Assembly: GCA_963777355.1 (NCBI GenBank)
Contig: CAVZQK010000020.1
Location: 1 to 64,000 of the forward strand
Length of the DNA: 64,000 nucleotides
From: an uncultured Chloroflexia bacterium
GTDB lineage: Bacteria > Chloroflexota > Ktedonobacteria > Ktedonobacterales > Ktedonobacteraceae
Reading direction: 5' to 3'
Shown here: positions 14 through 59,222 of the stretch, piece by piece
Layout: every line of letters starts with the position of its first letter
Numbering within the stretch: position 1 is the first letter of the stretch
Position numbers and translations under genes: made by a program
Notes under the pieces: generated by a model
The model's input: only the letters and a program-made list of their open reading frames with translations
Database searches by the model: none
What the model was told of the DNA's origin: nothing

Positions 14-200
14 TACGGGCAGCAACAAAGACGCCGCCCCAGAGTGCTGGGATAGCCTGTAATCAGTTGTAACCAGGTGATAAGAAGTGGTACCAGGAAG
101 GAAAATTCCTGAATGAGTAACCTGGTACCACTTCTTATCACCTGGTTACAACAATACGGCTATCCAGCACTCTGGGGCGGCGTCTTTGTTGCTGCCGTAG
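14..200. repeat. ~85-bp near-perfect inverted repeat: upstream arm (14-98) is reverse complement of dedA codons 4-29 (122-200); start codon lies in the 23-nt loop
   Basis: two blocks of 31 and 30 nt are identical in reverse complement, separated by a short divergent centre; spacer contains the palindrome GGAAAATTCC. Confidence 0.8.
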
Positions 201-13526: not shown

Positions 13527-16007
13527 TTACGCCGGTGTCTTATTCGATTTACCAAGATCTCGCTCTACATGGAGCACATCTTTTACACGTTCCAGGCGGG
13601 TAAAAAGTCGCTGGATCTGCTCAAGATCATATACCTCCACGGTTGTTGTCACCATTACCTGCTCACGACCATTGTGAGAATGTGAATTCACTGAGACCAG
13701 ATTAATATTACAGTCTGAGATGACAGTGGCAAGATCGCGAATCAGGCCGGGACGATCCTGTGCGGTAATGACTATAGGAGCAAGGTAGCGCGGCTGACTC
13801 ATGCCTACCCAGTTCACATGAATTAAACGTTCGCGGTCCCGCTCACGAAAACGAGCAATGTTCCGACAGTCCGAGCGATGGACGATCACACCTTTGCCGC
13901 GACTGATAAAACCGACGATCTCATCGCCCGGCAGGGGACAACAACAATTCGCCAGATGGGTCAAGAGTCCACTTACTCCTGCTACTTCCAAATCTGCCGA
14001 TATTGCCTGCTTGAGAGCTGGTGAAGGATGGACTATTTCGGTCTCTTCTTTGCTCTCTTTATGCTCTTTCGGACCTTCGCGCTGCTGCCAGTATTCAAAC
14101 AACTTGACAACTACAGCACGCGGACGCAGGTCGTCGGACCCGATGGCCGCCAGAATATCGGCGAGGTCATCCAGATGATATTCATGGCACAACCAGTTAG
14201 CGGCATCCTCGCTAATGTTCTCGGTGCTATTGCGTGAACCGGCATTCTTCAGCTCACGCTCCAGCCGCTCACGGCCAATCTGCACGTTAATATAGCGCTC
14301 GTGCATCTTCAGATAGCGGCGAATCTTGCTCTTTGCTGCCGCCGTGCGCGTAAAGCTGAGCCAGTCGCGGGTGGGATGGGCGGTACGACTCGTGACGATA
14401 TCAACTACTTCGCCATTTTTCAGCTCGTAGTCCAGAGGAACCATACGCGTGACCAGGCGATCTCCATCGCCACTTCCTACCTGGGAAATAATACGTGCGC
14501 CGGCACAGGCATCCCCAATCTTCGTATGGACGCGGTAGGCAAAATCAACCGGCGTGGAGCCTACGGGGAGATCCTTTACCTCGCCTTTCGGCGTGAAAAC
14601 AAAGATCTGCTCTTGAAAGAGATCATCTCTTACGACCTCAATAAATTCTGTCTCGCTATTGGTCGAGCGCAGCTCACGCTGCCATTCGGTCATCTGGCGC
14701 AACCAGGTAAGCAGCTCTTTGGCAGAGGCAGAGGCGGTATCCCCAACGTCTTTATAGTGCCAGTGCATCGCTACCCCATATTCGGCCAGTTCGTGCATTG
14801 CATGGGTGCGAATCTGTACCTCTACCAGTTGATTGTCCATGCAGAAGATCGTTGTATGGAGCGCCTGATAGCCGTTTGGCTTGGGATTGGCGATGAAATC
14901 TTTGATGCGGCCATCCTTTGGTCGCCAGAGACTATGCACATGACCGAGCGCAATATAACAATCGGAGGTCGTATCAACCAGGATGCGAAAGGCAATTAAA
15001 TCGTGAATCTGACTGATATCTGCGGCGGCTTTTAGCTCTTCAATTGTCGCAAATTCGCCGGTGGTACGCAGAATCTTCTTATAAAAACTATAGAGATGCT
15101 TGACCCGGCCAGAGATCTCCGCTTGCACATCTACCTGGGACATCTCCTGGCGCAGAATACCACAGACGCGCTCGACATAAGAGCGCCATTGCTTCCGCTC
15201 CAACTCGACAATCTCACGCACCCAGGCAAAGCTCTCCGGCTCCAGAATCTGAAATGCCAGATCATCCAGCTCGGATTCCACACGCGACATCCCCAGGCGA
15301 CCAGCCAACGGCGCATAGATCTCACGCGTCTCCAGGGCCATTGTCACCATCTCTTGCTGATCACCCTGATACTGGGGAGCACACATCATACGCACAGCAT
15401 GTAAACGATAGGCCAGCTTGAGCAGCACCACACGCGGATCTTCCGCCATCGCCACAAACATCTTCCGCACCGTCTCAGCCTGCTGGCGGCGCATCGCCTC
15501 CCGAATCCGTGGCTTTTTACTCTCGGCAGCGGAGCCACTCACCTCATCTCGCTCGTCACTGGACTTTTTTATCGCCGTCGTCTGCGAACCCTGAATAGCA
15601 AGTAAGGCTCCATCCGTAATACTCTGTTTTTTGCGCTCTAGAATATTCAGACGCCACATACTACCGACAACACGAGCCGTAGCAGCGCCAAGCACCTGCT
15701 CTACGACCTCTAACGCTAGCAATTCGGCATCTACCGCCTCAAAAACGAGTCCAGCGGCAATACCTATGGCATCAACATGCATCGTCTCGGCGAGAATAAT
15801 AGTGACCGCTAATGCATGATCCAGAGGGGGAAGAAGACGCTGGCCAGGCACGCCATGACACGTCTCTTGAGCCAGGCGATACGCGCGAATGACCTGGTTT
15901 ATCTCACTCTCATCCATGTATTCACGAATCAGAGTAAGAAGACTCTCCATCGCGCCTCCATATTCCTGTGGTACAGTCTGTTGTTCAACAAGCCTATCAT
16001 CAATCAT
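13527..16007 (-). CDS. long RelA/SpoT-homolog (p)ppGpp synthetase with degenerate HD hydrolase motif (HD->FE)
   Basis: HD-domain region 'LVFEAVDAE' instead of 'LLHDVVEDT'; intact synthetase motifs 'RPKDGRIKDF' and 'GYQALHT'; TGS and ACT regions present. Confidence 0.85.
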   Translation of the reverse strand: MIDDRLVEQQTVPQEYGGAMESLLTLIREYMDESEINQVIRAYRLAQETCHGVPGQRLLPPLDHALAVTIILAETMHVDAIGIAAGLVFEAVDAELLALEVVEQVLGAATARVVGSMWRLNILERKKQSITDGALLAIQGSQTTAIKKSSDERDEVSGSAAESKKPRIREAMRRQQAETVRKMFVAMAEDPRVVLLKLAYRLHAVRMMCAPQYQGDQQEMVTMALETREIYAPLAGRLGMSRVESELDDLAFQILEPESFAWVREIVELERKQWRSYVERVCGILRQEMSQVDVQAEISGRVKHLYSFYKKILRTTGEFATIEELKAAADISQIHDLIAFRILVDTTSDCYIALGHVHSLWRPKDGRIKDFIANPKPNGYQALHTTIFCMDNQLVEVQIRTHAMHELAEYGVAMHWHYKDVGDTASASAKELLTWLRQMTEWQRELRSTNSETEFIEVVRDDLFQEQIFVFTPKGEVKDLPVGSTPVDFAYRVHTKIGDACAGARIISQVGSGDGDRLVTRMVPLDYELKNGEVVDIVTSRTAHPTRDWLSFTRTAAAKSKIRRYLKMHERYINVQIGRERLERELKNAGSRNSTENISEDAANWLCHEYHLDDLADILAAIGSDDLRPRAVVVKLFEYWQQREGPKEHKESKEETEIVHPSPALKQAISADLEVAGVSGLLTHLANCCCPLPGDEIVGFISRGKGVIVHRSDCRNIARFRERDRERLIHVNWVGMSQPRYLAPIVITAQDRPGLIRDLATVISDCNINLVSVNSHSHNGREQVMVTTTVEVYDLEQIQRLFTRLERVKDVLHVERDLGKSNKTPA

Positions 16008-16453
16008 AGCATATATCGTTTATGGATATCTGGTCTATCCGGAAAGGAACTATCCAGTATGTGCGTTCCTTGACTAGAACGTGTCTTTAAGACCGCTCTC
16101 TGCATAAACGTTGCGTAAATGTTGTATAAACGCTCCACTCTTTCAGACACGCCCTAATATACGTTTTAAATTCTCTTTATTGAAACAACACTGGCAATGC
16201 TCGCTCATCCCGTCTCTCTACAGAGTATAACGTTTCTTTGCGATGTGCGAGTAAGCAGGACTAACAGAGTGCTTTCCTGTTTGCTTGATGAGCTACAAAG
16301 ACGTCCCACATGAACCTATAAAAAAACAGATTGTATTTATCTCTAACTCTAATATCGCATAAAATAGCCATAACAACACTGTTTTTATGCGCAAATTTTT
16401 GCGATGGCTTGAATTCTCCCTGGTGGAGGTACTTCTTTGTACCAGTTCCCCAA

Positions 16454-18928
16454 TTACTTTGTGAGGGCCCGTTCTACACTTACCACATGCTTCACCTGTT
16501 TCAGGCGACGGAGAAGACGCTCAAGCTGATCCAGCACGCTATCGTGGCTATCAATCTCTAGCGTTGCAGTGATGACTGCCTTTTGCAGCGATGTATTTGT
16601 TGTAGAGGTAACCGAGGTCATGTTAATGCCCGCGTCCGCGACTATCGCGGCTATGTCCCGCAACAGGCCAGAGCGATCATGGGCAACAATGTTGATTGGA
16701 ATCAGATATGACTCAGGATCAATCTGTCGCCAATGCATCTCTACCAGCGCGTTCGGTACATCGCGGTAACGCCGCAGGTTGCGGCAATCGTTCCGATGAA
16801 CCAGCATCCCTTTGCCAGGATGAATCAAGCCAGTAATTGTATCACCAGGGATAGGACAACAACATTGAGCCAGCTTGACATGGAGAGGACTGGCTGCGGC
16901 TTCCTCCTCAGGCTGTTCGTCCAGATCCATAACGTCAGCAGGCCCAGCAGGCAAGGCCGTTTGAGCGCTCACGGCTGGAAGCACATACGGCAATAAGCAC
17001 TCCAGCACGCGCTCAACGGGAAGATCTTCTCTGCCAATCGCAACATAGATATCCTCAAGCGTGGCATAGTTCTTGAGAGGAGTCTCGACATCTGAAAGGC
17101 GTAACTTCAAAATCTCTTCTTCAACGGAAGGAGATATGCCACTGACCACTCCAGAGGTCTTTAAGACCAGATCGAGACGCTCACGGCCAAGCTGAAGATT
17201 AATCTCGCGCTCATACGTTTTCAGGTAGCGCCGAATCTTATTGCGGGCCGCCGCCGTGCGCGTAAAACTTAACCAGTCGCGCGTAGGATGGACCGTCCGA
17301 TTCACCACAATATCGACGATCTCGCCACCCTTTAGTTCGTAATCCAGAGGCACCAGGCGTGTGACCAGGCGTCCACTATCATCCATGTTGGTGATGATGC
17401 GTGCCCCTGCACAATGGTCGCCGATATCGGTATGAATGCGATAGGCCATATCCAATGGAGTAGAGCCGCGTGGCAGATCTTTTACCTCCCCTTTAGGGGT
17501 AAAGACAAAAATCTGCTCTTGAAAGATATCGCCCTTGACCGCCTCTACAAACTCATCGGCTCCCTGGGGCAGTTCCCGCTGCCACTCGCGCAACTGCTCG
17601 ATCCAGGTCACCATTTCATGATAAGAGAGACGCCAGCTACTGGGCATACCCTCATTTTGCGCATCTGAGAGCTTCTCCGCCTGGCCCATGCGATCCTTTA
17701 GATACCAATAACTTGCAATTCCGTAGTCGGCGGTGCGCTGCATATCATAGGTGCGGATCTGAATCTCTGCCAGCCTGTTCTCCAGACAGAAGACGGTAGT
17801 ATGGAGAGACTGGTAGCCATTCAGTTTGGGAGTCGCGATAAAATCCTTGATGCGCCCATCCTTTGGACGCCATAAAGCGTGGATATGGCCAAGCGCAAGA
17901 TAGCATTCGTCATCAGAATCTACCAGAATACGAAAAGAGACCAGATCATGAATCTGACTCAGCTCGTCGCTGTTCTGCTCTTCTATTTTACGGTTAATAC
18001 TCGCCAGATGCTTCTGCCAGGCGACTACCTGGGCATGGATGCCGGCACGTTCCATCTCTTTGCGCAAGGCCCGGCAGACCTTTTCGATATATCCCTGACG
18101 GCGCTTCACTTCTTCTTCAACAGTACGGGCCAGGCGGGTAAATTTTTCTGGTTCAAGATAGCGCAGGGCCAGATCCTCAAGATCCGCCTGCACATTTGCC
18201 ATGCCCAGGCGGCGGGCCAGGGGAGCATAGATCTCGCTTGTCTCACGCGCCTTGTTCTGCTGTTGGGCAGAAGACATCGCGGAGAGGGTGCGCATATTAT
18301 GGAGCCGATCCGCCAGCTTTAAGACAACAACACGTGGATCTTCGGCCATTGCCAGCAGCATCTTACGCACTGTCTCCGTCAGAATGCGGCGCTTATCAAC
18401 AATAGAGGGGGGCGGTGAAATCTCAGCAGGCATCTCTTTATGTGCAATATCAGTAGGGGCGGGCTGAGGTCTTCCTGCCAGGGCATCGAATTTTGTGACA
18501 CCATCCACTATCGTCGCTACAGCAGCACCAAAAGCACTCTGAATATCCTCCAGAGAACAACTGGTATCCTCGACGACATCATGCAAAAGTGCGGAGACGA
18601 TCCCATCTGCATCAATACGCATATCTGCGAGGAGAAAGGCTACTTCGAGAGGATGTTGAATATAGGGCTCTCCTGAATTGCGCACAGCCCCCTGATGGGC
18701 TTTATTCGCCAGCTCATAGGCCCGACGAATCTTCTCCTGGTCGTCAGAGGTCAGGTACAGTCCCGTCTCTTGCAGTAGCTCTTTGAGCGTGAGCTTTGAA
18801 GGAGCCAGGGTTGCCCCTGAATAGGTACTTTCTGTACCTAATGATGCCTGAAACCTATTTGAGATATTATTGACGTTCATAGTCATAACACGTCCCTTGC
18901 GCTGCCTGGCATACCGTTTGTTCTGCAT
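16454..18928 (-). CDS. rel: bifunctional (p)ppGpp synthetase/hydrolase Rel/SpoT
   Basis: canonical 'HPLEVAFLLADMRIDADGIVSALLHDVVEDT' HD motif, 'RPKDGRIKDF', 'GYQSLHT', TGS and ACT domains; ~45-aa N-terminal extension so true start may be internal. Confidence 0.85.
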   Translation of the reverse strand: MQNKRYARQRKGRVMTMNVNNISNRFQASLGTESTYSGATLAPSKLTLKELLQETGLYLTSDDQEKIRRAYELANKAHQGAVRNSGEPYIQHPLEVAFLLADMRIDADGIVSALLHDVVEDTSCSLEDIQSAFGAAVATIVDGVTKFDALAGRPQPAPTDIAHKEMPAEISPPPSIVDKRRILTETVRKMLLAMAEDPRVVVLKLADRLHNMRTLSAMSSAQQQNKARETSEIYAPLARRLGMANVQADLEDLALRYLEPEKFTRLARTVEEEVKRRQGYIEKVCRALRKEMERAGIHAQVVAWQKHLASINRKIEEQNSDELSQIHDLVSFRILVDSDDECYLALGHIHALWRPKDGRIKDFIATPKLNGYQSLHTTVFCLENRLAEIQIRTYDMQRTADYGIASYWYLKDRMGQAEKLSDAQNEGMPSSWRLSYHEMVTWIEQLREWQRELPQGADEFVEAVKGDIFQEQIFVFTPKGEVKDLPRGSTPLDMAYRIHTDIGDHCAGARIITNMDDSGRLVTRLVPLDYELKGGEIVDIVVNRTVHPTRDWLSFTRTAAARNKIRRYLKTYEREINLQLGRERLDLVLKTSGVVSGISPSVEEEILKLRLSDVETPLKNYATLEDIYVAIGREDLPVERVLECLLPYVLPAVSAQTALPAGPADVMDLDEQPEEEAAASPLHVKLAQCCCPIPGDTITGLIHPGKGMLVHRNDCRNLRRYRDVPNALVEMHWRQIDPESYLIPINIVAHDRSGLLRDIAAIVADAGINMTSVTSTTNTSLQKAVITATLEIDSHDSVLDQLERLLRRLKQVKHVVSVERALTK

Positions 18929-19746: not shown

Positions 19747-20265
19747 CTAGGGACCTCCTTATGATAGGGTGGTTATCCTCCGGGTCCATATCTTGCAGAT
19801 GTCACCAGTCGTTCTTTCCCCTACCAGCGTGGGATATGATAGCCTGGACGAGCACTGTATGCGAGACCGAGATTGGATACCGTTTGCAAGCATACACCAT
19901 CTTTTTCTGATTTGCAAGGGCTTTTGCGGGATTTACTGAGTAATAGCGATTATTTTTATGGATATTTTATATGGTGATTTTAGATGAGAAAAGTACTCAA
20001 AGATGCTGATTGTATCTCATCCCTAAATTCTTTTTTACATTGTCCATTTCTATTACACTCTTTATGCAGTTCCCATCACGCCTTCGTTGAAACCAACAAA
20101 CACGCCTTCGTTGAAACCAACAAAACGGCCTGGCTTGACGGTGGTGAGAAAATAAGCAGGAGAAAATTTTAGAATGTGTCTCAAGTTCGCTTGCTCTAAG
20201 CAATTTCTGTGCTCGCTCCAGACATATTCTGAGCGTTCGTTCTACATAATGCATCTGTTCAGTAA

Positions 20266-21459
<1,194 letters not shown>

Positions 21460-24035: not shown

Positions 24036-26619
24036 TTAGATGAATGGGCTTTGCCACAATTTCCTCTCGCCTGTTGAGGATTGAAACATGAGGATTGAAA
24101 CAATCTTGATCGGTGCTTCCCCAAGCCCTTGCACATGAATGCGCTGCTCATCATCAGGAAGCATATCCAGCATATTATCGCTCCAGCTCAGCTCTTTATC
24201 GGCTGAGAAAAAAACCCCTTTGGCTGGACGCTTCACACGCACGCGTAAGATATCTTCTTCGTTGCGCTCGACAGTCAGATCGGGATCTTTCAAAGGCAGA
24301 TATTTTAAGGGTTCAGGCCAGTATGCAGCTCTTGCAAGGACCTCGTCATTTACCGAGTAAACGCATCCCAAAAATGATCTGCTCTCCCTGCCGCCCACTA
24401 CCAAAGTGCCCCAGTTCTGTAGCCTGGTTGGGTAAGAGCTCAACACGACGCAGCTCCTCCGCGACCAGTTTCCCATCCACTGTCCACGCACGCAGCTCCA
24501 TCTCAAACTGACGAGGTACGGTCAAGCCGTTCACTGCCCACGCTGCTACCCCCTGCTCGTCTTTTGCGAGACCGGCAACCAGGGGCGCGAGCTCTCGTTT
24601 GACGACATAATAGGCCGGTTTGGCACGCAGATAGTAATCAACCAGCGCCCAACTTGTCACAGGCCAGCAGTCATTCAATTGCCAGATGAGTGCTCCCGCT
24701 ACATACTCTCGCCCCTCACCCGACCAGCGCCTCCGCCAGCCGCGTATACCCGCACCCATTGCCTCTGCCTGCAAAAGCTGGAGTAATATAGGTGTATCCC
24801 TCCAGATCAGCAGGCATGCGGAAGTTCTCTACGACATATGCGGCTAATCGCGACGGACCACCAGCGCTTTTATTGTGATGGTCTAGCGTCCGGCTCTGGG
24901 CATAGCGCTCCTCCTCTGGCGTAAAAGGATTTCATCGTCCTTTTGTCAGGAAAGCCTTCCATGCCAAATTCGCTGACGAATTGCCCGGCAAACTTCGGGT
25001 AATCCTGGTACGGGACCATGCCATGCCAGATGGTCCAGATATGCTGGTCGCCAATCGTCAGGTTATTGGCATCGCTATCCGTACCCCCAAAGGGGCTGCT
25101 CGGCCAGTAGGGGCGCGTAGGATCATAGGAGCCACAAACATCTGGCAACACTTCTTCATAAAGAGCACGTGCCGGAAAAGCACTGGTTGCGAAATCTCCA
25201 GTAAAATCTGGGATCGTAGACATTGACAGACCTGGCAAGCAAGTAGTCTTCGTTATTTCCCGCCCAGATGACAATTGAGGGATGATGGCGTAGCCGTCTC
25301 ACATTGGCTATAGCTTCGGCCCGCACACTCGTCTGCATCCACTGGGGCGCGGGATAAAGTCCACAAGCAAACATAAAATCTTGCCAGACGAGTAGCCCCA
25401 GTTCGTCGCAGAGATCATAAAATACGTCTTCTTCATAGTATCCACCACCCCAGACCCGCAACATTGTCATGTTGCCCTCTGCCGCTAGCTCTAGCCAGCG
25501 ACGATACTTTTCAGCGGTAACACGCGGCCCAAATGAATCGGCAGGAATCCAGTTCGCCCCTCCGCAAAAAATTGGTGTGTTGTTGATCTCAAAAAAGAAT
25601 GTTTTCCCCGGTTCATCTAGCAGGGGACGCTGGATAAGTTGCAAACGGCGCAATCCTAAGCGCAGCTCCTGTCCTGTAAGCTCTCTCTCCCCATTACGCA
25701 AACTTACGACCAGGCGGTATAATGCCTGCTCCCCATACCCACGCGGCCACCAGAGCTGCGGTTGCTGAAGCTCGAATGTATGGGATAACGACGCAAGACT
25801 GGCTGGCAATATCGCTCGATCAACCAGCTTACCATCAGGACTATATACTTCCAGGTGCAGCGAGAGGCCGCTGGTGTGAATCTCACCATCCAGCAGTACC
25901 TGTACCGGCAGGAGTGCGCTCTCCAGATCTTCTACAACCTCAACTGGACAGTGGACCTCTACGATACGAGCGGCATAGGCCTCCAACCGCACTCCACGCC
26001 AGATACCAGCAGTTATTAGCGTCGGACCCCAATCCCAGCCATAATGATACTGCGCTTTCCTCACATAGAGACGACTACTATCTCCATTCCAGCAAGGATA
26101 AGATTTACCGGCCTCAGCCTCGCGCGTCTTGCCCTGCTGCCAGGCTGAGGCAAAATTTATGGTCAGCTCATTTTCTCCTGGCCGCAAAAGCCCGGTTACC
26201 TGCACTTGATGCGGCAGAAACATGTTCTCGCTTATGAGAATCTGCTGCTCATTCAACCATACGGTTGCAAACGTATCCAACCCATCAAAACAAAGGAGGA
26301 TATGTTCATCCAGGGAGAGGAAATCTTCTGGCAGGGTGAACTGGCAGCGGTATAGCCAGTCCTGCTCACCAACCCATTGCACCTCTTGTTCTTGTAATCC
26401 ATAAAATGGCTCAGGAATAAGCTCATGAGCCAGCAGATCCAGGTGCACACACCCAGGCACGCTGGCAGAGCGCCAATTCTCAGAGAATGCCAGATCATCC
26501 TTCAGGGAAAGAGCTGGAGTACGCTGTTTAAATTGCCAATGCTCGCTAAGATGCAGAATTTTCATCAGTGTGAGTTCAACGCCTTTCGTTTTAACAGCCG
26601 TGCTCTCACAATATACCAT
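24036..26619 (-). pseudogene. GH2 beta-mannosidase, fragmented into at least 4 ORFs by frameshifts
   Basis: N-terminal fragment has GH2 sugar-binding/TIM-barrel motifs incl. 'QPQLWWPRGYGEQALYRL' (beta-mannosidase signature); successive C-terminal fragments in other frames; 14-bp perfect tandem duplication at 24075-24102 inside coding sequence. Confidence 0.7.
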
Positions 26620-26699
26620 TGTTTTGACGAAGCTCGCATCTCATCGTTCCCTATTACCAGCTAACACCGACTCCAACACATTGCCAGGGGCAAAAGGGT

Positions 26700-26833
26700 T
26701 CGCCCCACGCCTTCTTGCCTCTCCGACCAACCCCTTGTAGGGCAGATCGGCTTGCCCGTCTCCTGTTCGCCCCACGTCTTCTTGCCTCTCCGACCAACCC
26801 CCTGTAGGGCAGATCGGCTTGCCCGTCTCCTGT
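26700..26833. repeat. 67-bp tandem direct repeat x2 containing hairpin core GTAGGGCAGATCGGCTTGCCCGTCTCCTG (REP/MITE-like unit)
   Basis: two consecutive near-identical 67-bp units read directly. Confidence 0.8.
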
Positions 26834-27060
26834 TCACCGAGCGCTGCTCTCGCCCCACAACGGAAACGCGAAAGATATCTTTTGCCTCTCTTTCCCTCCT
26901 CACCCGAAAGAAAAGGGAGGGAGGGAGACCATTCATCTTTTAATTCATCCCTCTCCACTTCGCCCAGCGCTCCTCTCGCTTTTCAAAAAAGGGTCCAGGT
27001 AAGAGGGGGCGAGAGCAGCGCTCGGTGAACAGGAGACGGCCTAGCCGATCTACCCTACGG
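26822..27060. repeat. nested palindromic element: 26-bp inverted repeat TGTTCACCGAGCGCTGCTCTCGCCCC (26822-26847 / 27004-27033) flanking an internal GGGAGGGAGGGA hairpin, followed by a partial inverted copy of the REP-like core (27037-27060)
   Basis: read directly; lies in the 950-bp intergenic region between GH2 start and DAHP synthase. Confidence 0.7.
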
Positions 27061-27170
27061 AATTCTGTGGGGGACTGATGCTAGTATTGATCTCTGACAG
27101 TAAGCTTCGGATATACAGAGTATCTGCTAAGAGAGGCATTTTAGTAGCAAAAGTAACCGGTCATGGCCCC

Positions 27171-27199
27171 TTGACACATTTCTCATGCTCCGCTATACT
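27171..27199 (+). promoter_or_regulatory. sigma-70-type promoter: -35 TTGACA, 17-bp spacer, -10 TATACT
   Basis: consensus hexamers with optimal spacing, 70 nt upstream of leader-peptide ATG. Confidence 0.6.
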
Positions 27200-27272
27200 T
27201 TTTATAAGCAAGTAAAGAGTCGTCTGCTAAAAATAGTGTAGCCAGACGCTCCGGAAGAATTGAGAGATTTTT

Positions 27273-27335
27273 ATGCTCAGCCAATACAACAACACACAAT
27301 CTAGCTTTTATTATTGGTTTAGCCCTCCAGCATGA
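27273..27335 (+). CDS. candidate attenuation leader peptide MLSQYNNTQSSFYYWFSPPA (aromatic run F-Y-Y-W-F)
   Basis: 20-codon ORF whose 5 consecutive aromatic codons sit just upstream of a large hairpin (27325-27381) and an intrinsic terminator, immediately upstream of DAHP synthase. Confidence 0.6.
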   Translation: MLSQYNNTQSSFYYWFSPPA

Positions 27336-27383
27336 TGGTGGGCCCTTTGGGCTGAGAAAAAAATCCACCAGCATGCTGGAGAA

Positions 27384-27418
27384 GCAGAGGACGAAATGAC
27401 CTCTGCTTTTTTGTTTCT
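27384..27418 (+). terminator. intrinsic terminator (attenuator) upstream of DAHP synthase
   Basis: stem GCAGAGG/CCTCTGC followed by TTTTTTGTTTCTC. Confidence 0.6.
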
Positions 27419-27578
27419 CTGGAAATGTTCTCTGTTCATTTCAGGATCGCGGATTTCATGATGCAATTGCATCTCGATTTTATTGTCGGCATTGAAAAAC
27501 TCGCACTCTATCTAGTAGATCACGAGCGTTGCCAGGAGTGAGCGGGTTCAAGACACGTTCTATGAGAGGATACATCTG

Positions 27579-36950: not shown

Positions 36951-38252
36951 TCAACAGGGGGAGGAAGCGCCGCCCTCCTTTCTGCGTTCTTCCAGACGGG
37001 GCTGCTGCGTGATCATCCAGCCGTGTGTGGGACGCGCTCTTCGTTCTACTTTGCCTGGGACCACCTCCAGCAGTTTCTTCCCACTCCTGACGTCTTTGAT
37101 GAGAAATGCACCTTTCTCTCGCCGTCCTGCGATGTAGCCGCTCTTCCCTTTCGCCTTGACCAGTTCGTAGAGCTTGAAGCCATGCACTTTGCGCGGAGAC
37201 CAACACTTGTGCTCACTGTGTCGCCCATTGAAGCGCTGATACTGCCCTCGTGGCAGACAACGGATCTGAAAAACGTTCGCCGATGGCTTCACCCTTTCAC
37301 CGATCTCGCAAGCAATGGCCACCGCATCGTTGCTGTGGGACTTCGGTAGGGCAAGCACCTGAATCCGTTGGTATTTTGTCTGATACCCAAACCTAATGCG
37401 TACCTGCTCCTCCCCAAACTGCCCTCGAAGGTGTCCCACAACAGCGGTCTTGATCGAGGAGACATGGGCTGCATCTTTGAGCGGCACGCGAGCCTGTGCC
37501 TGGATCGCGGGGAAACCAAACTCAGCGGCGGTTTGGGTTCCTTTTTTGCGATTACAGGGTTCACACGCCAGGGTGAGATTGCAGACGCGATCACTGCCGC
37601 CTCTCGCTTTGGGAAGGATATGTTCTAGTTGCAGGGGGATGCCCGTCGCCTGACAGTAGGCGCACCGCCGCTGCCACTTCGCCAGCACATATTCACGCAC
37701 CAGATACCCCTGCAACTCCCCCTGTTGATAGGACACCCCCGTAATCTCCGGGTGCTGCATCTTCTGGGTATCGAAACTGCCAATTTCCACATTGACCTGC
37801 TTCACCGGCAGCAGTGAGGCCACAAACCGCACCGCCTTGACCGTGGAGTCTGCTTTCGCGCGTAAGGAAGGTGGTAACCACCCGGCTTTGCGGCGACGAT
37901 TGGCCCATCGCGGCGCACGATAGCGCGTCTTGCGACTTCGACGCGTGTGCCGATAGTGCCGTCGCTGTGTCATCTTCTTGGTGATATCATCACGCAGATG
38001 CACCTCGGCTTGCAAGACCACCGCACCATTGGTGAGAGCGGCGATCCCCACTCCTTTTGAGCCGGTATCCACTCCCACGCTGACCGCCTGGGTGTAGGAG
38101 GGGGTCTGGAAGCGGAGGCGAATAGTGAAAGGCTCACGACTGATGAGACGAGCCTGACGCGTGCGCAGCCAATACCACACTTTCTTCTGCCGCCTGGTGG
38201 GCATGAGAGGCTGCCCTTCGCTATTTTGCACGTAGATGATGGATTGCTCCAT
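36951..38252 (-). CDS. iscB: IscB (OMEGA RNA-guided endonuclease; PLMP-RuvC-BH-HNH-RuvC architecture)
   Basis: N-terminal 'GQPLMPT' (PLMP), RuvC-I 'VGVDTGSKGVGIAAL', Arg-rich bridge helix 'RRHYRHTRRSRKTRYRAPRWANRRRK', RuvC-II 'VNVEIGSFD', HNH 'CAYCQ...LEHILPKARGGSDRVCNLTLACEPCNRKKG', RuvC-III 'KSHSNDAVAIA'; 433 aa. Confidence 0.85.
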   Translation of the reverse strand: MEQSIIYVQNSEGQPLMPTRRQKKVWYWLRTRQARLISREPFTIRLRFQTPSYTQAVSVGVDTGSKGVGIAALTNGAVVLQAEVHLRDDITKKMTQRRHYRHTRRSRKTRYRAPRWANRRRKAGWLPPSLRAKADSTVKAVRFVASLLPVKQVNVEIGSFDTQKMQHPEITGVSYQQGELQGYLVREYVLAKWQRRCAYCQATGIPLQLEHILPKARGGSDRVCNLTLACEPCNRKKGTQTAAEFGFPAIQAQARVPLKDAAHVSSIKTAVVGHLRGQFGEEQVRIRFGYQTKYQRIQVLALPKSHSNDAVAIACEIGERVKPSANVFQIRCLPRGQYQRFNGRHSEHKCWSPRKVHGFKLYELVKAKGKSGYIAGRREKGAFLIKDVRSGKKLLEVVPGKVERRARPTHGWMITQQPRLEERRKEGGASSPC

Positions 38253-38600
38253 AAATCTTCCTTTCGGAGTGAAACGTTCCCCTCGACAAAGATGAGCAGG
38301 CGGGACATGGCCTCTTCACGGTGGCTGACCTCACCACGGTTAAAAGAGACCTTCCAGTGCTGGAAACTGAGGCAGCATTTCCAGGTGGGAGCTTGACCGC
38401 TTCCTGCTATCGTAGTTCTCTCCTCGAACGACAAGACGCACGCTTGCTCGACTTGTCGTTCTCAAGAACTGAGTCTGGTCAATCCGGCTTGCACGGGGCG
38501 AACCCCTCACAAGCCTCCCCACTCTGTGGGGAGGTCATTGACCTCTTCTGTCCTTTATAATCGCTCGCAATCTATTATACCTTCCCACTTTCTCCAGACT
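38253..38600 (-). ncRNA. candidate IscB omega-RNA scaffold (structured GC-rich region directly upstream of iscB, same strand)
   Basis: multiple strong hairpins (GAACGACAAG/CTTGTCGTTC, CCTCCCCA/TGGGGAGG, GGGG/CCCC) and no credible ORF; position matches known IscB-omegaRNA arrangement. Confidence 0.5.
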
Positions 38601-39961: not shown

Positions 39962-41102
39962 ATGAATATTCTTTTTTCTTCATCTGACTCTGATGAAACT
40001 GAACCACGCTTGCCTAGTGTCTTGCTAAATGAACACGATCCCACTGAAAAAGTTCCGCTGGTAGAACTTACTCAGAGAGACCCCGATCTGCCAGAGGATA
40101 ATTTTGCTTCGGCGGCTCATTTCCAGGCCGCCTTATCACCAGATATATCTACTATGCCAACATTACCAGAAATCATTCCAGATATTTCTATGCAGCCAAC
40201 ATTGGCAGGTGCCTATCCGGATATTTCTACGCTACCAACATCGGCAGGTGCCTATCCAAATCTTCCAGCGAAACTCTCTGCACCAGTTATATCAACCATG
40301 TTCAGTGGCGCACCACCCCCGCCTCAACCACTATCCGAAGGTCCATTTGAGTGGTATAAGCACCAGGACCCAGGTAAAAGACTGTGGCTTGGCGGTGGTG
40401 CAATAGCGCTCTTATTAACCATCATTGGCTATCTTTTTTTGCTAGTAGCCCTTAATCACGTTCCTGCCCCGACTATCGTCACACCCTATGCAACTCCAGC
40501 TATAACATCAATAAAACATCTAACATCTACACCAACTAGCCCTTTTATTGGACTTATTCCTGTTACTCCTACACAAGGACCAGCGAACACCTCAATACCC
40601 ACGCAGATCACAACACCATCGGCCAATCCTACCCAACCACCCTCTAATCCTACTCAACCACCTACTCATCCTACTCCAACCGCCCTCTGATCCTACCCAA
40701 CCACCTTCTGATCCTACCCAACCACCTTCTGAGCCTACCCAACCGCCTACTCACTCTACTCATCCGAAACCACCTGAGCCTACCCAACCACCCGACCTAC
40801 CCAGCCACCTGAGCCTACTCAGCCGCCCGCAAACCGACACCTACACCGATACCTACGCCTATTCCGACACCTACACCGGTCACAGGCATTAATGGTAATC
40901 CCTGGGGCTATGATTTTAATCCCGGAATGTACATTACCCATCCGCCTCCGGCATTTTGTTCTTACTTTTCCTGCACAAGAGACTTCTATTTCGGGCATGG
41001 CTACGTTGTGGAATGTACCGATAGCAAATTTAGCCTCTGGGGCGGTTCAAGATTTGCCTGCTTCTGGGATGGAGGAGTTGTGACTCCCCTCTATTCACAT
41101 TA
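39962..41102 (+). CDS. hypothetical single-pass membrane protein with Pro/Thr-rich 'PTQPPS' repeat linker and conserved Cys-containing C-terminal domain; two frameshifts inside the repeat (~40685, ~40795)
   Basis: three consecutive frames encode N-terminal+TM, (PTQPPS)n repeats, then 'NGNPWGYDFNPGMYITHPPPAFCSYFSCTRDFYFGHGYVVECTDSKFSLWGGSRFACFWDGG'. Confidence 0.5.
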
Positions 41103-53785: not shown

Positions 53786-56476
53786 CTAAATACTCCGTTG
53801 CACCCAGACCTTGAAAATGGGTGCAGCGATGCGATAGCAGTTCCCACTACTCTCCACAAGATCACGCCTTTGGAGACGTTGCAAGGCACGGCGCATCGAG
53901 AGATCTGCCAGGCTTGATTGCGCCTGGATAGCGGCACCGTTGGCTGTATCCAGAACCAGCAGACTACGCAAACAGGCGCGTTGCTCTTCATCAGTCCGCT
54001 CCCAGAGATCGCGGAAATAGTTATCCTCCCATTTCTGAAACATCTCTTCAACCGCGTTAGTAATATCTGCCTCTTCCGCCTGCTCACGCATAGCTGTGTT
54101 TAGTCGCGTCACAATGATCGAGCAGACCGCCTGAATAAGAAAAGGATGACCACCCGTCTCTCGAATAATAGACGCTACAATCTGCTCAGAGAAGATAAGC
54201 TCTCCTGGGAAATTGGCAACAGGATGTGTAATCAAATGCCTGGCTTCCCCTGGCTGCAAAAAGCTGACTTTGAGCGTCTCCACATTGACAAAATAACCCG
54301 ACCAGTTGGCCCCCATCTCGCCCACTGATTTGACACCGCTGAAGAGCAGCGCAATGCGAGGCCGATTCTGAATCGTGCTACGCAACCAATCCAACAAAAG
54401 CACCAGATCGATATGGCCTTTATGTCCCGCCTCTTCCAGTTTCTCAAATTCATCAAATGTCAGCAGCAGGACACGCCCTTCCTTCTCCAACAATTGCTCA
54501 ATATCTTTCAACCAGCGCCCAAAACGATGATAGGCTACAGCCTCATTCTGCCGCTGATCCTCTCGCAACTGCTCATATTCCAATTTCTTGAGCAGCATCC
54601 CACGAGCCATGAGGAGATCATAGATTCCTTCAGCAATGGCGGCAAGCAGGGCGGCTGTGCTGGAAGCGATTCCCGTTGATTGTAGATCATAAAAGACGGG
54701 AAGATACTGCGAACCTAGCAGGTCCGGCAGTTGCTTGAGAATACTGCTTTTTCCCATTCTGCGCTCTCCAGAAAGAAAAAAAGTCGGACGGCGCGGACGC
54801 AAAAGCGCCTCACCCAACTGCTGGGCCACGTCTTTGCGCCCGACGAAGAGGGGATCACGCAGCTCAAGGACAAGACCAGGAACATAAGGATTGGTAATCG
54901 AACCAAAATCTTCGTTATCCCGGCTCACATTCTCCTGCTCATGCTTCGCCACTATACGCCAGCGCTGCATCAATTGTTCAAGACGGCGATTTAAACGCGC
55001 CTCCCGAAAGACTGTTGTTGAATAGATTCCCTGGAGATCTGTCAACATGTTTTCCAACGCTTCATAGCGGGCCTGGCGGTTTATACGTGAATAGTAACTG
55101 GCCGCATCCCGGCTGGCGTCTTCTATATGCCGAAACAGACGCGCAGCCTGCGGATTGAACAAGCGTACCTCGTGCGGTAACGTGACCTGGAGACGCTGAT
55201 GAGCATGGCTAATGTCCCGCAGGCCCTCACATAAACACAGATCACCCAGGGCAATCTCAAGCGCAGTCGCTAGCACGGCGATTCGTTGCTGCGGACGCTC
55301 ATGCAGAAGGAAATCAATTTCCCGCAACGCCAGCTCAACATTCTGATTAGCAGCTATCAAGAGGAGAGGACGAACATACGGCAAAGGCAAAAAGACGCAC
55401 TCATCCCAAAAGAGCGCACAATGGCGCAGATTATAAAAAATTCTCTCAGGATGTTTTTGACTGTCCAGGTAGACCTTGAGCATGGATGCTGCATTGAAGG
55501 GGTACAGCAACAGACGGTAATAGTTAGGAATGTAGCTGACCAGAAAGGCCAATCCTACAATCAATGTGTTGATCCAGCCAGCAGAGATTCCAGTCCATAG
55601 GTTGGCTTGCATTAAACCAACATCTCCAACAGACGAGCCAACCGAGAGACCAAAGGCTCCTGCTACGACAACCCCAATACGCGTGCTCGCCTCAATCACC
55701 TCGGTATGACTATTCACACTGCTCTGCACAATTGCGCCTACCAGACGAACAAGCAAAGCCGCAGTAAGACCACCAACGACCAGCCCCGCAATGCTACCAG
55801 TTATATTCGTCGAACTTCGTTGAACTTCCGGTCCACCAATGAGACCTACCAGCAAACCAGACCAATAGCCCCCAAATGTGCCCGTCAATAAACCAACCCC
55901 TATGCCTGTGAGGGTTCCAACTCCAGCCCCAAGCGTCATCCTCCCCAGACCACTCCGTCTTATTGCCTCTATATTATTAAATGTGAGACTTAAAAAACTG
56001 CCAAAAGAGAGACCAAATATCACACCGACAAGCGCATCATTCTGATTATTAATCGCAATTCCACTGGCCAGAGCTAATGCCAGTGCCGCAGCTACTCCAT
56101 ACACAACACTCAAAAGACTCCCAAAAACCCCACCTAGCAGGCAGCTAAGAAACGTTGCCCAGAGGCAATCAAAAGCAAAGAGCAAAACAGCAGGCTCAAA
56201 ACTCAATAGAGTATGAATAGGATAATATGGGCGAAAGGTTGCTGGCAAATAAAGATAGACTACGATACGCAGGAAGAGAGCAAGGGGATAGATAAACAAA
56301 AATAAAGGTATCATCAGACGCAGTGTCAGACGTAAGCGCCCGGCAATTGTCTCTCGTTCTACGTCTCTTTGAAAACTAGCCGGTTGAAAAAAACATCGTA
56401 GCAGCCAGATAGTCGGCTCAACAAACCAGGAATGCCAGAAGTTCTGCCGTAAGTTTATAAAAATAGGTATCCTCAA
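53786..56476 (-). CDS. large polytopic membrane protein with C-terminal Arch_ATPase/AAA P-loop NTPase and winged-helix domain
   Basis: N-terminal ~450 aa with ~10 Gly-zipper TM helices; C-terminal 'FVGRKDVAQQLGEALLRPRRPTFFLSGERRMGKSSIL' Walker A and 'LLLTFDEFE' Walker B; start overlaps upstream gene stop (ATGA). Confidence 0.7.
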   Translation of the reverse strand: MRIPIFINLRQNFWHSWFVEPTIWLLRCFFQPASFQRDVERETIAGRLRLTLRLMIPLFLFIYPLALFLRIVVYLYLPATFRPYYPIHTLLSFEPAVLLFAFDCLWATFLSCLLGGVFGSLLSVVYGVAAALALALASGIAINNQNDALVGVIFGLSFGSFLSLTFNNIEAIRRSGLGRMTLGAGVGTLTGIGVGLLTGTFGGYWSGLLVGLIGGPEVQRSSTNITGSIAGLVVGGLTAALLVRLVGAIVQSSVNSHTEVIEASTRIGVVVAGAFGLSVGSSVGDVGLMQANLWTGISAGWINTLIVGLAFLVSYIPNYYRLLLYPFNAASMLKVYLDSQKHPERIFYNLRHCALFWDECVFLPLPYVRPLLLIAANQNVELALREIDFLLHERPQQRIAVLATALEIALGDLCLCEGLRDISHAHQRLQVTLPHEVRLFNPQAARLFRHIEDASRDAASYYSRINRQARYEALENMLTDLQGIYSTTVFREARLNRRLEQLMQRWRIVAKHEQENVSRDNEDFGSITNPYVPGLVLELRDPLFVGRKDVAQQLGEALLRPRRPTFFLSGERRMGKSSILKQLPDLLGSQYLPVFYDLQSTGIASSTAALLAAIAEGIYDLLMARGMLLKKLEYEQLREDQRQNEAVAYHRFGRWLKDIEQLLEKEGRVLLLTFDEFEKLEEAGHKGHIDLVLLLDWLRSTIQNRPRIALLFSGVKSVGEMGANWSGYFVNVETLKVSFLQPGEARHLITHPVANFPGELIFSEQIVASIIRETGGHPFLIQAVCSIIVTRLNTAMREQAEEADITNAVEEMFQKWEDNYFRDLWERTDEEQRACLRSLLVLDTANGAAIQAQSSLADLSMRRALQRLQRRDLVESSGNCYRIAAPIFKVWVQRSI

Positions 56477-57546
56477 TAGACAACCTCACGATACAGCACT
56501 TCCAGACGCTGCTCAAATTGCTGCCAGAAGTGCTCACTTTCCTGAAGAGGCTCTTCGGTGAGGAGCTTCCCTACCAGTTGCAGACGCAGTGGCGGCCAGC
56601 GACCAGGACTTAACTCCCCATAACGCCAGAGGGCCTCTGTTTCACGCGCTCCAAATCCAGCTTGACTACTCTTCGCAAGAATAAATGCTTCTGCCTCCCG
56701 CTGTTGAAATGGCTCCAGCATAATTTGCTCAAAGATATTAAAAAAGCCGCTCGTCTCCATATCCTTTCCAATTATCGCACTAATTGGCTGTCGGCTAATA
56801 ACAATTAAAACGAGGCCAAAGATTTGCGTCATCGCACGCAGGCCGCGAAAAAAGTCGAGCGAAAACTCGCGTCGATTCCCCATACCTTCAAATTCATCAA
56901 TGCACAATACAGGCGTTTCCTGCTTCGCCTTCAGCAGCTTCAGCCCCTTTTCCAGACCTAAAAGACCTGTCGCCGGATTAGCCGGCAGACTCAGCGCCTC
57001 CAGGGCTTCACTGGCAAAACCGGTTACGGTCTGACAACTCGGCATTGTCGCATCCAGATAGCCAATATGGAAACGCCTACCAAACTCATGCTCAGCCATT
57101 AAACGCAGATAACTGGCCAGCCAGGTCTTGCCAATACGGCGCGGACCAATAATCGAGGTCGAGGCATGTCGATAGGTCCGATTGAGCAGGGTCTCCCGCT
57201 CACGCCTGCGTCCATAACATTCTTGAGGAGCCAGCAATGGCTCATTAAAAAAAAATAGCGTTTTCACATGTTGACGCGAATGCTCAACCACAGGCAAGCT
57301 TTCTTCTTTTGACTCTGGCTTTTGCCGTTTCTCCTCAACCAGGCCGAGTTCAGCAATGCTCATACCGTAAAGAATACTGAGTTTTCTCCGAAAATGTCGA
57401 CTGGGAAAGGTTATCCCACTCTCCCAACGACTAACCGTTACGCTTGTTGTGCCAAGCTTCTCCGCAAGTTCTTCTTGCGTCCAGCCCTGGCTTTCTCGTG
57501 CAAGACGCAAATATGCTTTAGGGAAAGCATCATCAGGCTTTCTCAC
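56473..57546 (-). CDS. XRE-family HTH fused to Arch_ATPase/AAA P-loop NTPase
   Basis: N-terminal 'LRLARESQGWTQEELAEKLGTTSVTVSRWESG' HTH_3; 'CYGRRRERETLLNRTYRHASTSIIGPRRIGKTWLASYL' Walker A; 'VLCIDEFE' Walker B. Confidence 0.7.
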   Translation of the reverse strand: MRKPDDAFPKAYLRLARESQGWTQEELAEKLGTTSVTVSRWESGITFPSRHFRRKLSILYGMSIAELGLVEEKRQKPESKEESLPVVEHSRQHVKTLFFFNEPLLAPQECYGRRRERETLLNRTYRHASTSIIGPRRIGKTWLASYLRLMAEHEFGRRFHIGYLDATMPSCQTVTGFASEALEALSLPANPATGLLGLEKGLKLLKAKQETPVLCIDEFEGMGNRREFSLDFFRGLRAMTQIFGLVLIVISRQPISAIIGKDMETSGFFNIFEQIMLEPFQQREAEAFILAKSSQAGFGARETEALWRYGELSPGRWPPLRLQLVGKLLTEEPLQESEHFWQQFEQRLEVLYREVVY

Positions 57547-57847
57547 AAAATAATCCCCCTTTAGAGTCAGTCTGACTTACAACGCTACACAAAAATAAAA
57601 CCTGACTTATCTCTAGCTTCTATCGGCAAATTTGATAAGGAATATATGAAGATGATATTATCATCATTTTATCATCCTGTTTCAATGTTGTATACTTATT
57701 GACGATTTTTCCTCAAAAATGCAAATATAGCCCCACCTTTCCTCCTATCCCACTCTCTTCATTCTTCAGGCAAGCGCTAATGATCTGGCTCTCTTGCACG
57801 GGTGATATACTAGTACCATGACCGTCCTCATTTGAACTGTGAGAATC

Positions 57848-57882
57848 CCGTAGGGCAGATCGGCTTGCCCGTCTCCTGCTCA
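57848..57882. repeat. dispersed copy of REP-like core CCGTAGGGCAGATCGGCTTGCCCGTCTCCTG (also at 26727-26766 and 26794-26833)
   Basis: 31/32 nt identity to the 26.7-kb copies; intergenic. Confidence 0.8.
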
Positions 57883-57998
57883 CTTATCACGCTCTCGCCG
57901 GATGTTGTCTCTCCTACAAAGGAAGGTGGTCACGGTACTAGAAAAGATATTTCGTACAAGGATTGTGTAGCAGCAATACGAAAAGATGGAGTATTTGG

Positions 57999-58773
57999 AT
58001 GACAGAATACCAGTATATCCTCGTCGAACGTGCTGAAAATGTTGGCATCGTGACGCTCAATCGCCCTAAAGAACTTAATGCTTTGAGTATGGCGCTGATA
58101 AAAGAGCTGGCCGACGCGCTGGAGGATTTTGATCGCGATGATGCGGTCCATTGTATTATTATCACGGGTTCAGGTGAAAAGGCGTTTGCCGCGGGAGCGG
58201 ATATCAAGGAGATGTCGGGAAAACTCCGATAGAGATGTTTATGGGCGACGGCGAGGCCTGGGGACGTATCCGCCGCCTCCATACACCCCTGATTGCCGCT
58301 GTGAATGGTTACGCTTTGGGCGGCGGCTGTGAACTCGCTCTGCATTGCGATATGATTGTGGCCTCAGAAAACGCTCGCTTTGGCCAGCCTGAAATACTCA
58401 TCGGCATAATTCCGGGCGCTGGTGGTACCCAAAGACTTGCCCGCGTCCTCGGTAAATATCGCACAATGGAGATGGTCCTCACAGGCGCACAGGTCACAGC
58501 CCAGGAACTCGCAAGCCTGGGACTCGTCAACCGCGTCGTCCCCAAAGGCGAACACCTGCACGAAGCCCTGAAACTTGCGCAAACAGTAGCGCCCAGGCCC
58601 CCCTCGCCGCCCGCATGGCCAAAGAGGCTGTCCTCGCCGCCTTTGAAACCTCCCTCGAAGAGGGACTGGAGGCCGAGCGCAAAAACTTCTTCCTGCTCTT
58701 CTCTACCGAAGATATGCGCGAAGGGATGCGAGCCTTTATCGAAAAACGCAAACCCGACTTCAAAGGCAAATAA
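57999..58773 (+). CDS. enoyl-CoA hydratase/isomerase (crotonase) with two frameshifts (~58225, ~58590)
   Basis: '[18 protein letters not shown]', '[50 protein letters not shown]', then '[17 protein letters not shown]' in third frame. Confidence 0.75.
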
Positions 58774-59222
58774 CCCTATCGTTTTCCTTCTCCCTCTTAG
58801 ACCCTTATATCGGTTATTGTCCGTAAAACGCGTATCGTTGTCAATCCCTAGCAAAATTCTTCTCTCTCTTAGGAACTCTCGAAGAATAAAATATCCGAGA
58901 GGCGATGGTGAACTGGCGTTTTGGAAGAAGACAAAGCTCATCTTTCAAAACGCATTTCTCTTGACACAGAATACTCTTTAGGGCTAAAATAAAGCACATT
59001 ACGCAAAGGAGGACTACTCTCATGAATACGACTTTTGCTTGCTTCGACCTTATGGAAGGTGTATTGGCTTAGTCAGAGGCGAAAATGATTCCCAGTTCTC
59101 CGGCTTTGCTCCCGTGAAAAGGCCGGTTTGCCACTGCTCTGTGCATGCTTCTCATGTACCTCTGTCTGCCACTCCTTCCCCTCAGCTTTGCTGTTCCACT
59201 TTTCTTGTGAAAAGGAGTGACT

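Follow-up and report, generated by a model that had tools for sequence, protein, structure and literature searches.

A short GTAG-headed repeat beside aroG in a Ktedonobacteraceae genome: a possible REP/REPIN-like cluster with a solitary copy 31 kb away

What is a group of structured, non-coding repeats doing in the spacer between two bacterial genes: does it belong to a mobile family, does it serve the genes on either side, or does it record a duplication that took place on the spot? The question is raised by a short repeat present as four units at two loci in a 64-kb stretch of DNA from a soil bacterium of the Ktedonobacteraceae, the whole of which was analysed and is called the window in what follows. 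The main element occupies the spacer between a GH2 gene (- strand) and aroG (+ strand), whose product, a DAHP synthase, is up to 85% identical to proteins of Ktedonobacteraceae (Chloroflexota). The original prediction, made from the letters of the sequence, had seen in it a REP/BIME-like structure or a small MITE, with a second copy near 57.85 kb, and had suggested that it might act as a promoter, as a terminator or in RNA stabilisation.

The basic unit is about 55-60 nt long and consists of GTAG, a short stem-loop and an inner segment, GTAGGGCAGATCGGCTTGCCCGTCTCCTGTTCACCGAGCGCTGCTCTCGCCCC. All four units (c1 to c4; Table 1) start with GTAG, the GTAG columns are invariant in their alignment, and 28 nt are identical in three of the copies. 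With up to three mismatches allowed, this 28-nt core has four matches in the window against 0.00 expected (100 shuffles), and nhmmer, run over the whole 64 kb with a profile built from the four arms, adds to the known copies only a weak internal fragment at about 26952-26980.

Two of the units, c2 and c3, stand head-outward at 26.8-27.06 kb and make up a doublet of 255 bp (26804-27058). A 26-bp inverted repeat and a partial inverted copy of the core had been described here as separate features; both sequences are present, but they turn out to be parts of one contiguous 53-nt inverted repeat (26804-26856 / 27006-27058, 94% complementary), with 149 nt between the arms. The complementarity of the arms stops exactly at GTAG/CTAC, the CTAC lying at 27058. 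Between c3 and the solo unit c4 similarity runs 8 nt past CTAC (AGAATYCC, 7/8 identical), and this extension, common only to these two units, could be a preferred target or part of a slightly longer unit. The three differences between c2 and c3 all fall within the 18-nt hairpin zone (chance probability about 0.04), a confinement that is reminiscent of REP 'heterodimers'.

A third unit is placed beside the doublet by a 67-bp reiteration of one unit together with flanking DNA. TRF recovers this tandem duplication (period 67, 2.1 copies, score 262, 97% identity) and thus bears out the prediction, with the boundaries moved from 26700-26833 to 26698-26831. No direct repeat qualifying as a target-site duplication was found at either pair of possible boundaries (flanks CCCCCT and GGAATT at 26804/27058, AAAAGG and GTGGGG at 26698/27066), an absence that is not conclusive because the tandem unit obscures the left boundary. 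The open reading frames that cross the element on both strands had been called spurious from the start, and none has a Pfam match. One of them, a 105-aa ORF on the - strand (26641-26958), is called as a gene in a public protein collection, where it forms the singleton cluster P0137; its annotation as a gene is spurious and due to the repeat.

Table 1. Coordinates of the repeat units and associated features in the window.
Feature	Position	Strand	Observation
First 67-bp tandem unit	26698-26764	+	TRF period 67, score 262; core 28-mer exact
Pyrimidine-rich 39-nt 'tail' of first tandem unit	26698-26736	+	
Repeat unit c1, within first tandem unit	GTAG start at 26737	+	
Second 67-bp tandem unit	26765-26831	+	97% identical to first; carries c2, GTAG at 26804
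Left 53-nt arm of inverted doublet	26804-26856	+	c2 plus inner arm GTTCACCGAGCGCTGCTCTCGCCCC; GTAG head outward
149-nt doublet spacer	26857-27005	.	Contains palindrome, 14-bp hairpin and degenerate inner-arm copy
Right doublet arm, unit c3, inverted	27006-27066	-	
Solo unit c4	57842-57900	+	nhmmer E = 2.6e-19
25-nt inverted repeat enclosing c4	57810-57834 / 57917-57941	.	80% complementary, unrelated to the repeat; DNA fold z = -2.1

The structure of the element is dominated by its arms. The whole element folds far better than shuffled sequences (z = -9.3 on the + strand and -7.8 on the - strand; -85 kcal/mol as DNA), and the two head-outward units with their 149-nt spacer can, as predicted by folding, close into one long single-stranded DNA hairpin. 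The spacer is itself structured: it holds a small palindrome (26863-26890), a 14-bp hairpin formed by CTCTTTCCCTCC and GGGAGGGAGGGAG at about 26887-26928, and, at 26959-26979, one more and degenerate copy of the inner arm, able to pair with positions 27008-27028 of the right arm. The 14-bp stem carries the GGGAGGGAGGGA run, and the hairpin that had been proposed for that run is therefore real. The hairpin core of the single unit, GGGCA-N8-TGCCC, is likewise present where it had been described, but it is weak: a 5-bp stem with an 8-nt loop reaches only -4.6 kcal/mol as DNA (z = -1.5), and two of the five pairs are lost in c3, the inverted copy. An alternative 6-bp stem, AGA(t)CGG/CCGTCT, is intact and invariant in all four copies, and draws no support from covariation because it is invariant across only four sequences. 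A search against Rfam returned no match to the element, the only similarities being to miRNA-like hairpins, far below threshold, at 26949-27039.

The dispersed copy announced for 57.85 kb exists, at a distance of 31 kb from the 26.8-27.06-kb cluster. Positions 57850-57883 of c4 are identical to 26804-26837 of c2 at 33 of 34 positions, and a weaker similarity takes in the whole of 57842-57900; the two units diverge in the inner arm. The unit sits between the arms of an inverted repeat of its own (Table 1) and is read as a decayed singlet that occupies the loop of a palindrome already in place. A 'double-foot' reading of c4, GTAGG...CCTAC at 57850-57918, is possible but weak (-5.5 kcal/mol). On the - strand its neighbour is an XRE-HTH/AAA-ATPase gene starting at 57546, upstream of which the copy had rightly been placed, and about 98 bp further on from c4 a divergent gene, by eye an enoyl-CoA hydratase, starts near 57998 on the + strand. 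The former is one of two adjacent, operon-like genes (53786-57546, - strand), encoding an XRE-HTH plus AAA/STAND-like ATPase of 357 aa and a protein of 896 aa in which a multi-pass membrane N-terminus and an ATPase domain can be recognised by eye. This gene pair, the 'ATPase operon' downstream of the solo repeat, could be a defence- or signalling-type module.

Could the repeat act on its neighbours? Both loci lie between divergently transcribed genes, that is in divergent promoter regions, and neither is therefore at a 3' end. The aroG promoter is a strong, sigma-70-type site (TTGACA-17-TATACT, 27171-27199), and the element remains outside the aroG transcript, as it ends about 105-113 bp before the -35 box. 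A scan for consensus sites found no promoter-like site inside the element; the only site of any kind within it is a weak terminator-like hairpin at 26868-26885, and the number of sites in the region does not exceed that in shuffled sequences. On the other side of the spacer, the GH2 gene (24102-26565, - strand) is broken by at least four frameshifts into at least five frame segments when compared with an intact 824-aa orthologue, its true start being near 26565.

The closest available relatives provide four syntenic aroG loci (L001, L002, L102 and L103), with aroG genes 77-84% identical to that of the window. An intact GH2 gene adjoins aroG across a 624-bp spacer in L001 and L002, and the gene order RelA-RelA-zf-Tgt-LplA-HbpS-membrane protein-aroG-ANTAR of the window is found, without GH2, in L102 and L103. 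Conservation of the aroG promoter, leader and attenuator extends to all four (window positions 27256-27421 are 93% identical to L001), and no trace of the repeat was found in about 65 kb of syntenic DNA from these relatives. Since relatives that share both the synteny and the aroG control region lack the repeat, the element is, on this sequence comparison, an insertion or a lineage-specific gain and not a conserved regulatory feature. The promoter, terminator or RNA-stabilising role suggested at the outset is thus left unsupported, given the divergent spacers, the position outside the aroG transcript, the absence of any site above chance and the relatives that do without the element.

The aroG control region deserves a description of its own. 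A leader ORF of 20 codons (27273-27335), MLSQYNNTQSSFYYWFSPPA followed by a stop, precedes alternative hairpins and then a terminator, GCAGAGG...CCTCTGC with a T-run (27384-27413). The leader motif SFYYWFSPPA recurs in conserved form, like the hairpins, in each of the four relatives, the control region extending over 27171-27415 in the window, 3085-3340 in L001, about 2340-2590 in L002, 9669-9910 in L102 and 5925-6190 in L103. As far as sequence allows one to judge, this looks like a classical ribosome-mediated attenuator that would sense Phe, Tyr and Trp together in Ktedonobacteraceae.

How far does the repeat extend beyond the window? A degenerate 27-mer had no match in 185,579 GTDB species-representative genomes. 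In the JGI metagenomes, a 24-mer with three free positions hit a single coding sequence (two samples), in which similarity ends after the 24 nt. A relaxed scan of genomes with 18 specified bases was uninformative, yielding at least 93 single chance matches in GC-rich taxa; among the matches listed, none extends past about 20-33 nt and none spans a whole arm. Viral contigs, plasmids and phages contained nothing real, and the P0137 ORF had no relative among 5.8 billion protein clusters, where no more than 18 proteins have as much as a 5-residue word in common with it. These negative results show a sequence that is not shared with other sampled lineages. They have little bearing on the number of copies in the source genome, unless that genome was among those searched with just the window masked, in which case the 27-mer result would point to very few copies and to no additional near-exact ones.

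A gene for a Y1 transposase of the RAYT type was recognised neither in the 17 window ORFs scanned with Pfam (Y1_Tnp) nor, by eye, in the other ORFs of the window, where the only transposon-type gene is an IscB accompanied by a HEARO RNA. In the latter locus (36951-38542, - strand), the HEARO/omega RNA (RF02033, 94 bits, with the gathering score at 83) is found immediately upstream of an IscB-type ORF of 433 aa (RRXRR plus HNH). No TnpA gene stands beside it, and its neighbours are, by eye, an Eda-like aldolase fragment and a sugar kinase gene.

REP units are imperfect palindromes of 20-40 bp with a stem of usually 6-13 bp (minimum 5). The class is recognised by a conserved 5' GT[AG]G at the foot of the structure, by tens to hundreds of extragenic copies, and by a cognate single-copy RAYT gene (Y1 HUH) that is usually flanked by the same REPs. 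The GTAG-tagged superfamily, the main one among REPs, occurs in Chloroflexi; its dimers are predominantly head-outward ('HH'), with conserved, often structured spacers, its clusters reiterate singletons or dimers plus flanking DNA, and several of its families are inserted inside palindromes (PMC3733652). Spacers of REP dimers usually measure 20-100 bp, and REPs are mostly found between convergent or unidirectional genes, divergent spacers being under-represented (PMC3733652). For REPINs, the inverted doublet has been described as the replicative unit and singlets as its decayed remnants (PMC3116915), and GTAG REPs as well as REPINs/BIMEs are mobilised by RAYT (TnpA-REP) Y1 transposases (PMC2817692, PMC3116915, PMC3733652, PMC6006769).

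The element under study shares with GTAG REPs and REPINs its GTAG heads, its extragenic site, a head-outward doublet able to form one long hairpin, tandem reiteration together with flanking DNA, a singlet in a palindrome, the absence of a target-site duplication, and a lineage-specific sequence. In contrast to the usual REPs, the stem of its single unit has only 5-6 bp, with a loop of 5-8 nt and a stability that is not significant; its arms (53 nt) and spacer (149 nt) are longer; both of its loci lie between divergent genes, although the preference of REPs is a tendency and not a strict rule; and no RAYT was recognised among the window ORFs, with four units known at two loci, all within 64 kb. 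Two described systems come close in other respects. The GTAG-23 REPs of Thermomicrobium roseum, a member of the same phylum, form blocks at few loci and are inserted in small palindromes (PMC3733652); the likeness is one of description only, and T. roseum, a GC-rich organism, is only a distant relative of Ktedonobacteria. Families of TIRs associated with RAYT-like 'TIRYT' genes consist of moderately abundant long inverted repeats, arranged as dimers or clusters and mobilised by Y1 enzymes (PMC3733652), but these TIRs are described as unrelated to GTAG repeats (PMC3733652).

The best reading of the locus, held tentatively and at a little less than an even chance, is a lineage-specific, GTAG-tagged REP/REPIN (BIME-like) cluster together with a singlet inside a palindrome, which would be selfish, non-autonomous and moved in trans by a RAYT-type Y1 transposase. 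The mobile entity would be the doublet, which a RAYT/TnpA(REP)-type Y1 (HUH) enzyme encoded elsewhere in the genome would cut out and insert in single-stranded form, recognising GTAG at the base of the hairpin. Slippage or unequal recombination would have produced the tandem unit, the singlet c4 would be an immobile remnant, and no role for the neighbouring genes would be needed to explain the element. The class named in the original prediction, REP/BIME-like or small MITE, was the right one, as the GTAG heads, the head-outward doublet, the tandem reiteration and the singlet in a palindrome testify. The element is nevertheless not classed as a confirmed REP/REPIN, because of its weak and partly broken hairpin, its long spacer, its divergent loci and the fact that no Y1 gene was recognised among the window ORFs.

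The main rival, doubtful but to be taken seriously, is a MITE derived from a DDE-type insertion sequence, which would span the 255 bp at 26804-27058 between 53-nt TIRs and be moved in trans by its parent IS, the 57.85-kb copy being a solo terminal repeat left by a deletion and the 67-bp duplication a secondary event. Such an element would account for a structure governed by long, near-perfect terminal repeats rather than by the hairpin of the single unit, which is not significant; the size of 255 bp, the lack of coding capacity (neither Pfam matches nor homologues for the ORFs), the intergenic position beside a decayed gene, and the presence/absence differences with relatives that lack it also suit a MITE. 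Yet the termini are GTAG/CTAC, the signature of REPs, and TIRs of 53 nt are longer than bacterial MITEs usually have; the window has no IS whose ends match, and there is no plasmid or phage match. Among REPs there is better precedent for a solitary end lying exactly within a palindrome (PMC3733652), and no target-site duplication is seen at 26804/27058 or 26698/27066, so that single-strand transposition by a Y1 enzyme fits better than a DDE mechanism, with the reservation already made for the obscured left boundary. A GTAG-tagged REP/REPIN is, on these points, the better fit. A further explanation, which we regard as unlikely, dispenses with a mobile family altogether and invokes slippage and fold-back duplication within a decaying intergenic region, followed by a single ectopic repair or gene conversion event that created the 57.85-kb copy. 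A 67-bp tandem is indeed a typical product of slippage, the adjacent GH2 gene is broken by at least four frameshifts, the two loci are just 31 kb apart, and nothing was found outside the window in any collection searched. These outside negatives are, however, probably blind to the source genome. A near-perfect 34-nt copy in the loop of an unrelated palindrome, with eight shared outer bases, would be hard to obtain without a targeted mechanism, and if a multi-megabase genome had no other loci, it would be most improbable for both to fall within one 64-kb window, short of copying that is strongly local.

Host function offers a different kind of explanation, and one that appears quite improbable: the repeat would be a shared operator, or a structured DNA or RNA element co-regulating two divergent promoter regions, or else a small RNA gene. 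It finds some footing in the position of both loci in such regions, in the 28 nt kept identical in three copies and in the strong predicted structure, but it fits poorly with an element that is not conserved, relatives keeping the aroG promoter, leader peptide and attenuator without it. Nor does the repeat have an Rfam match, its miRNA-like hairpins being sub-threshold; it contains no promoter-like site, and its sole terminator-like hairpin is at the level of chance. Moreover, the flanking genes are functionally unrelated and the copies occur in mixed orientations. That the repeat is an artefact of assembly is highly improbable. Frameshifts in Tgt, GH2 and the putative enoyl-CoA hydratase gene, and a perfect nested palindrome at window positions 18-196, might raise this suspicion. 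Fold-back artefacts are, however, perfect and located at contig ends, not 26 kb inside, whereas the copies of the repeat are imperfect in a structured way (97% identity in the tandem, 94% in the arms, whose differences all lie in the hairpin zone) and the solo copy lies in unique sequence.

Several more specific candidates were tried and rejected. In a CRISPR array, direct repeats of 28-37 nt alternate with unique spacers, usually near cas genes; the 67-bp period would suit such an array, but here the two 'spacers' show about 95% identity to each other, the direct units number only two while a third is inverted, and a cas gene was not recognised among the genes of the window. A PATE derived from IS200/IS605 and related to the resident IscB element was dismissed after blastn and nhmmer searches with the element gave nothing significant at 36.9-38.6 kb, and an integron attC site on the sole grounds that the motif does not fit and that no integrase was recognised in the window. 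Synteny with the relatives continues uninterrupted across the left 'end' of a supposed 31-kb genomic island delimited by the direct copies at 26.8 and 57.85 kb, and the island was discarded for that reason. Finally, alignment lends no support to a derivation of the 39-nt 'tails' from the interior of the doublet by deletion.

Other parts of the window hold frame changes, palindromes and duplications that are reported here as separate observations. In the Tgt gene (20278-21459, + strand) two or more inferred frame changes, one located at a G4 run, compensate each other so that the gene reads through. The putative enoyl-CoA hydratase gene (about 57998-58981, + strand) has one frameshift near 58230; the state of the GH2, Tgt and hydratase genes suggests long-read indel errors, real pseudogenes, or both. 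The nested palindrome at 18-196 is made of two pairs of arms (18-50/164-196 and 66-97/121-152), both 100% complementary, and a reverse-complement copy of roughly the first 85 nt of a DedA-like gene (by eye; start at 113) is found directly upstream of that gene; this palindrome looks like a fold-back artefact at the contig end. Just upstream of Tgt, a perfect 24-bp tandem duplication, CACGCCTTCGTTGAAACCAACAAA, occurs as two copies and a partial third (20077-20124). Tandem repeats with periods of 21, 18 and 6 bp at 40594-40877 encode a Pro/Thr-rich segment, with frame changes within the stretch, across the ORFs at 39962-40690 and 40548-40892. Adjacent paralogues of the RelA/SpoT family (13527-18928, - strand; 826 and 824 aa, by eye) share DNA blocks that are 71-75% identical, and the same tandem pair, with RelA_SpoT Pfam domains, is present in L102.

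What would a GTAG-tagged REP/REPIN mean for these bacteria? No report linking REP or RAYT elements to Ktedonobacteria was found in the library of papers searched. In a bolder version of this reading, to which we give a low probability, the element would be the visible tip of a REPIN-RAYT-type system in Ktedonobacteria, distinguished by arms and a spacer of unusual length and by a tendency to occupy palindromes of divergent promoter regions in preference to 3' ends. As matters stand, the element is a small repeat specific to its lineage, without a demonstrated effect on the adjacent genes, and its main use is in annotation. Confirmation across the genome would bring the large, actinomycete-like genomes of Ktedonobacteria into the known range of GTAG-REP/REPIN elements, and the repeat would then serve as a compact marker both in strain typing and in studies of vertically inherited selfish DNA outside Proteobacteria.
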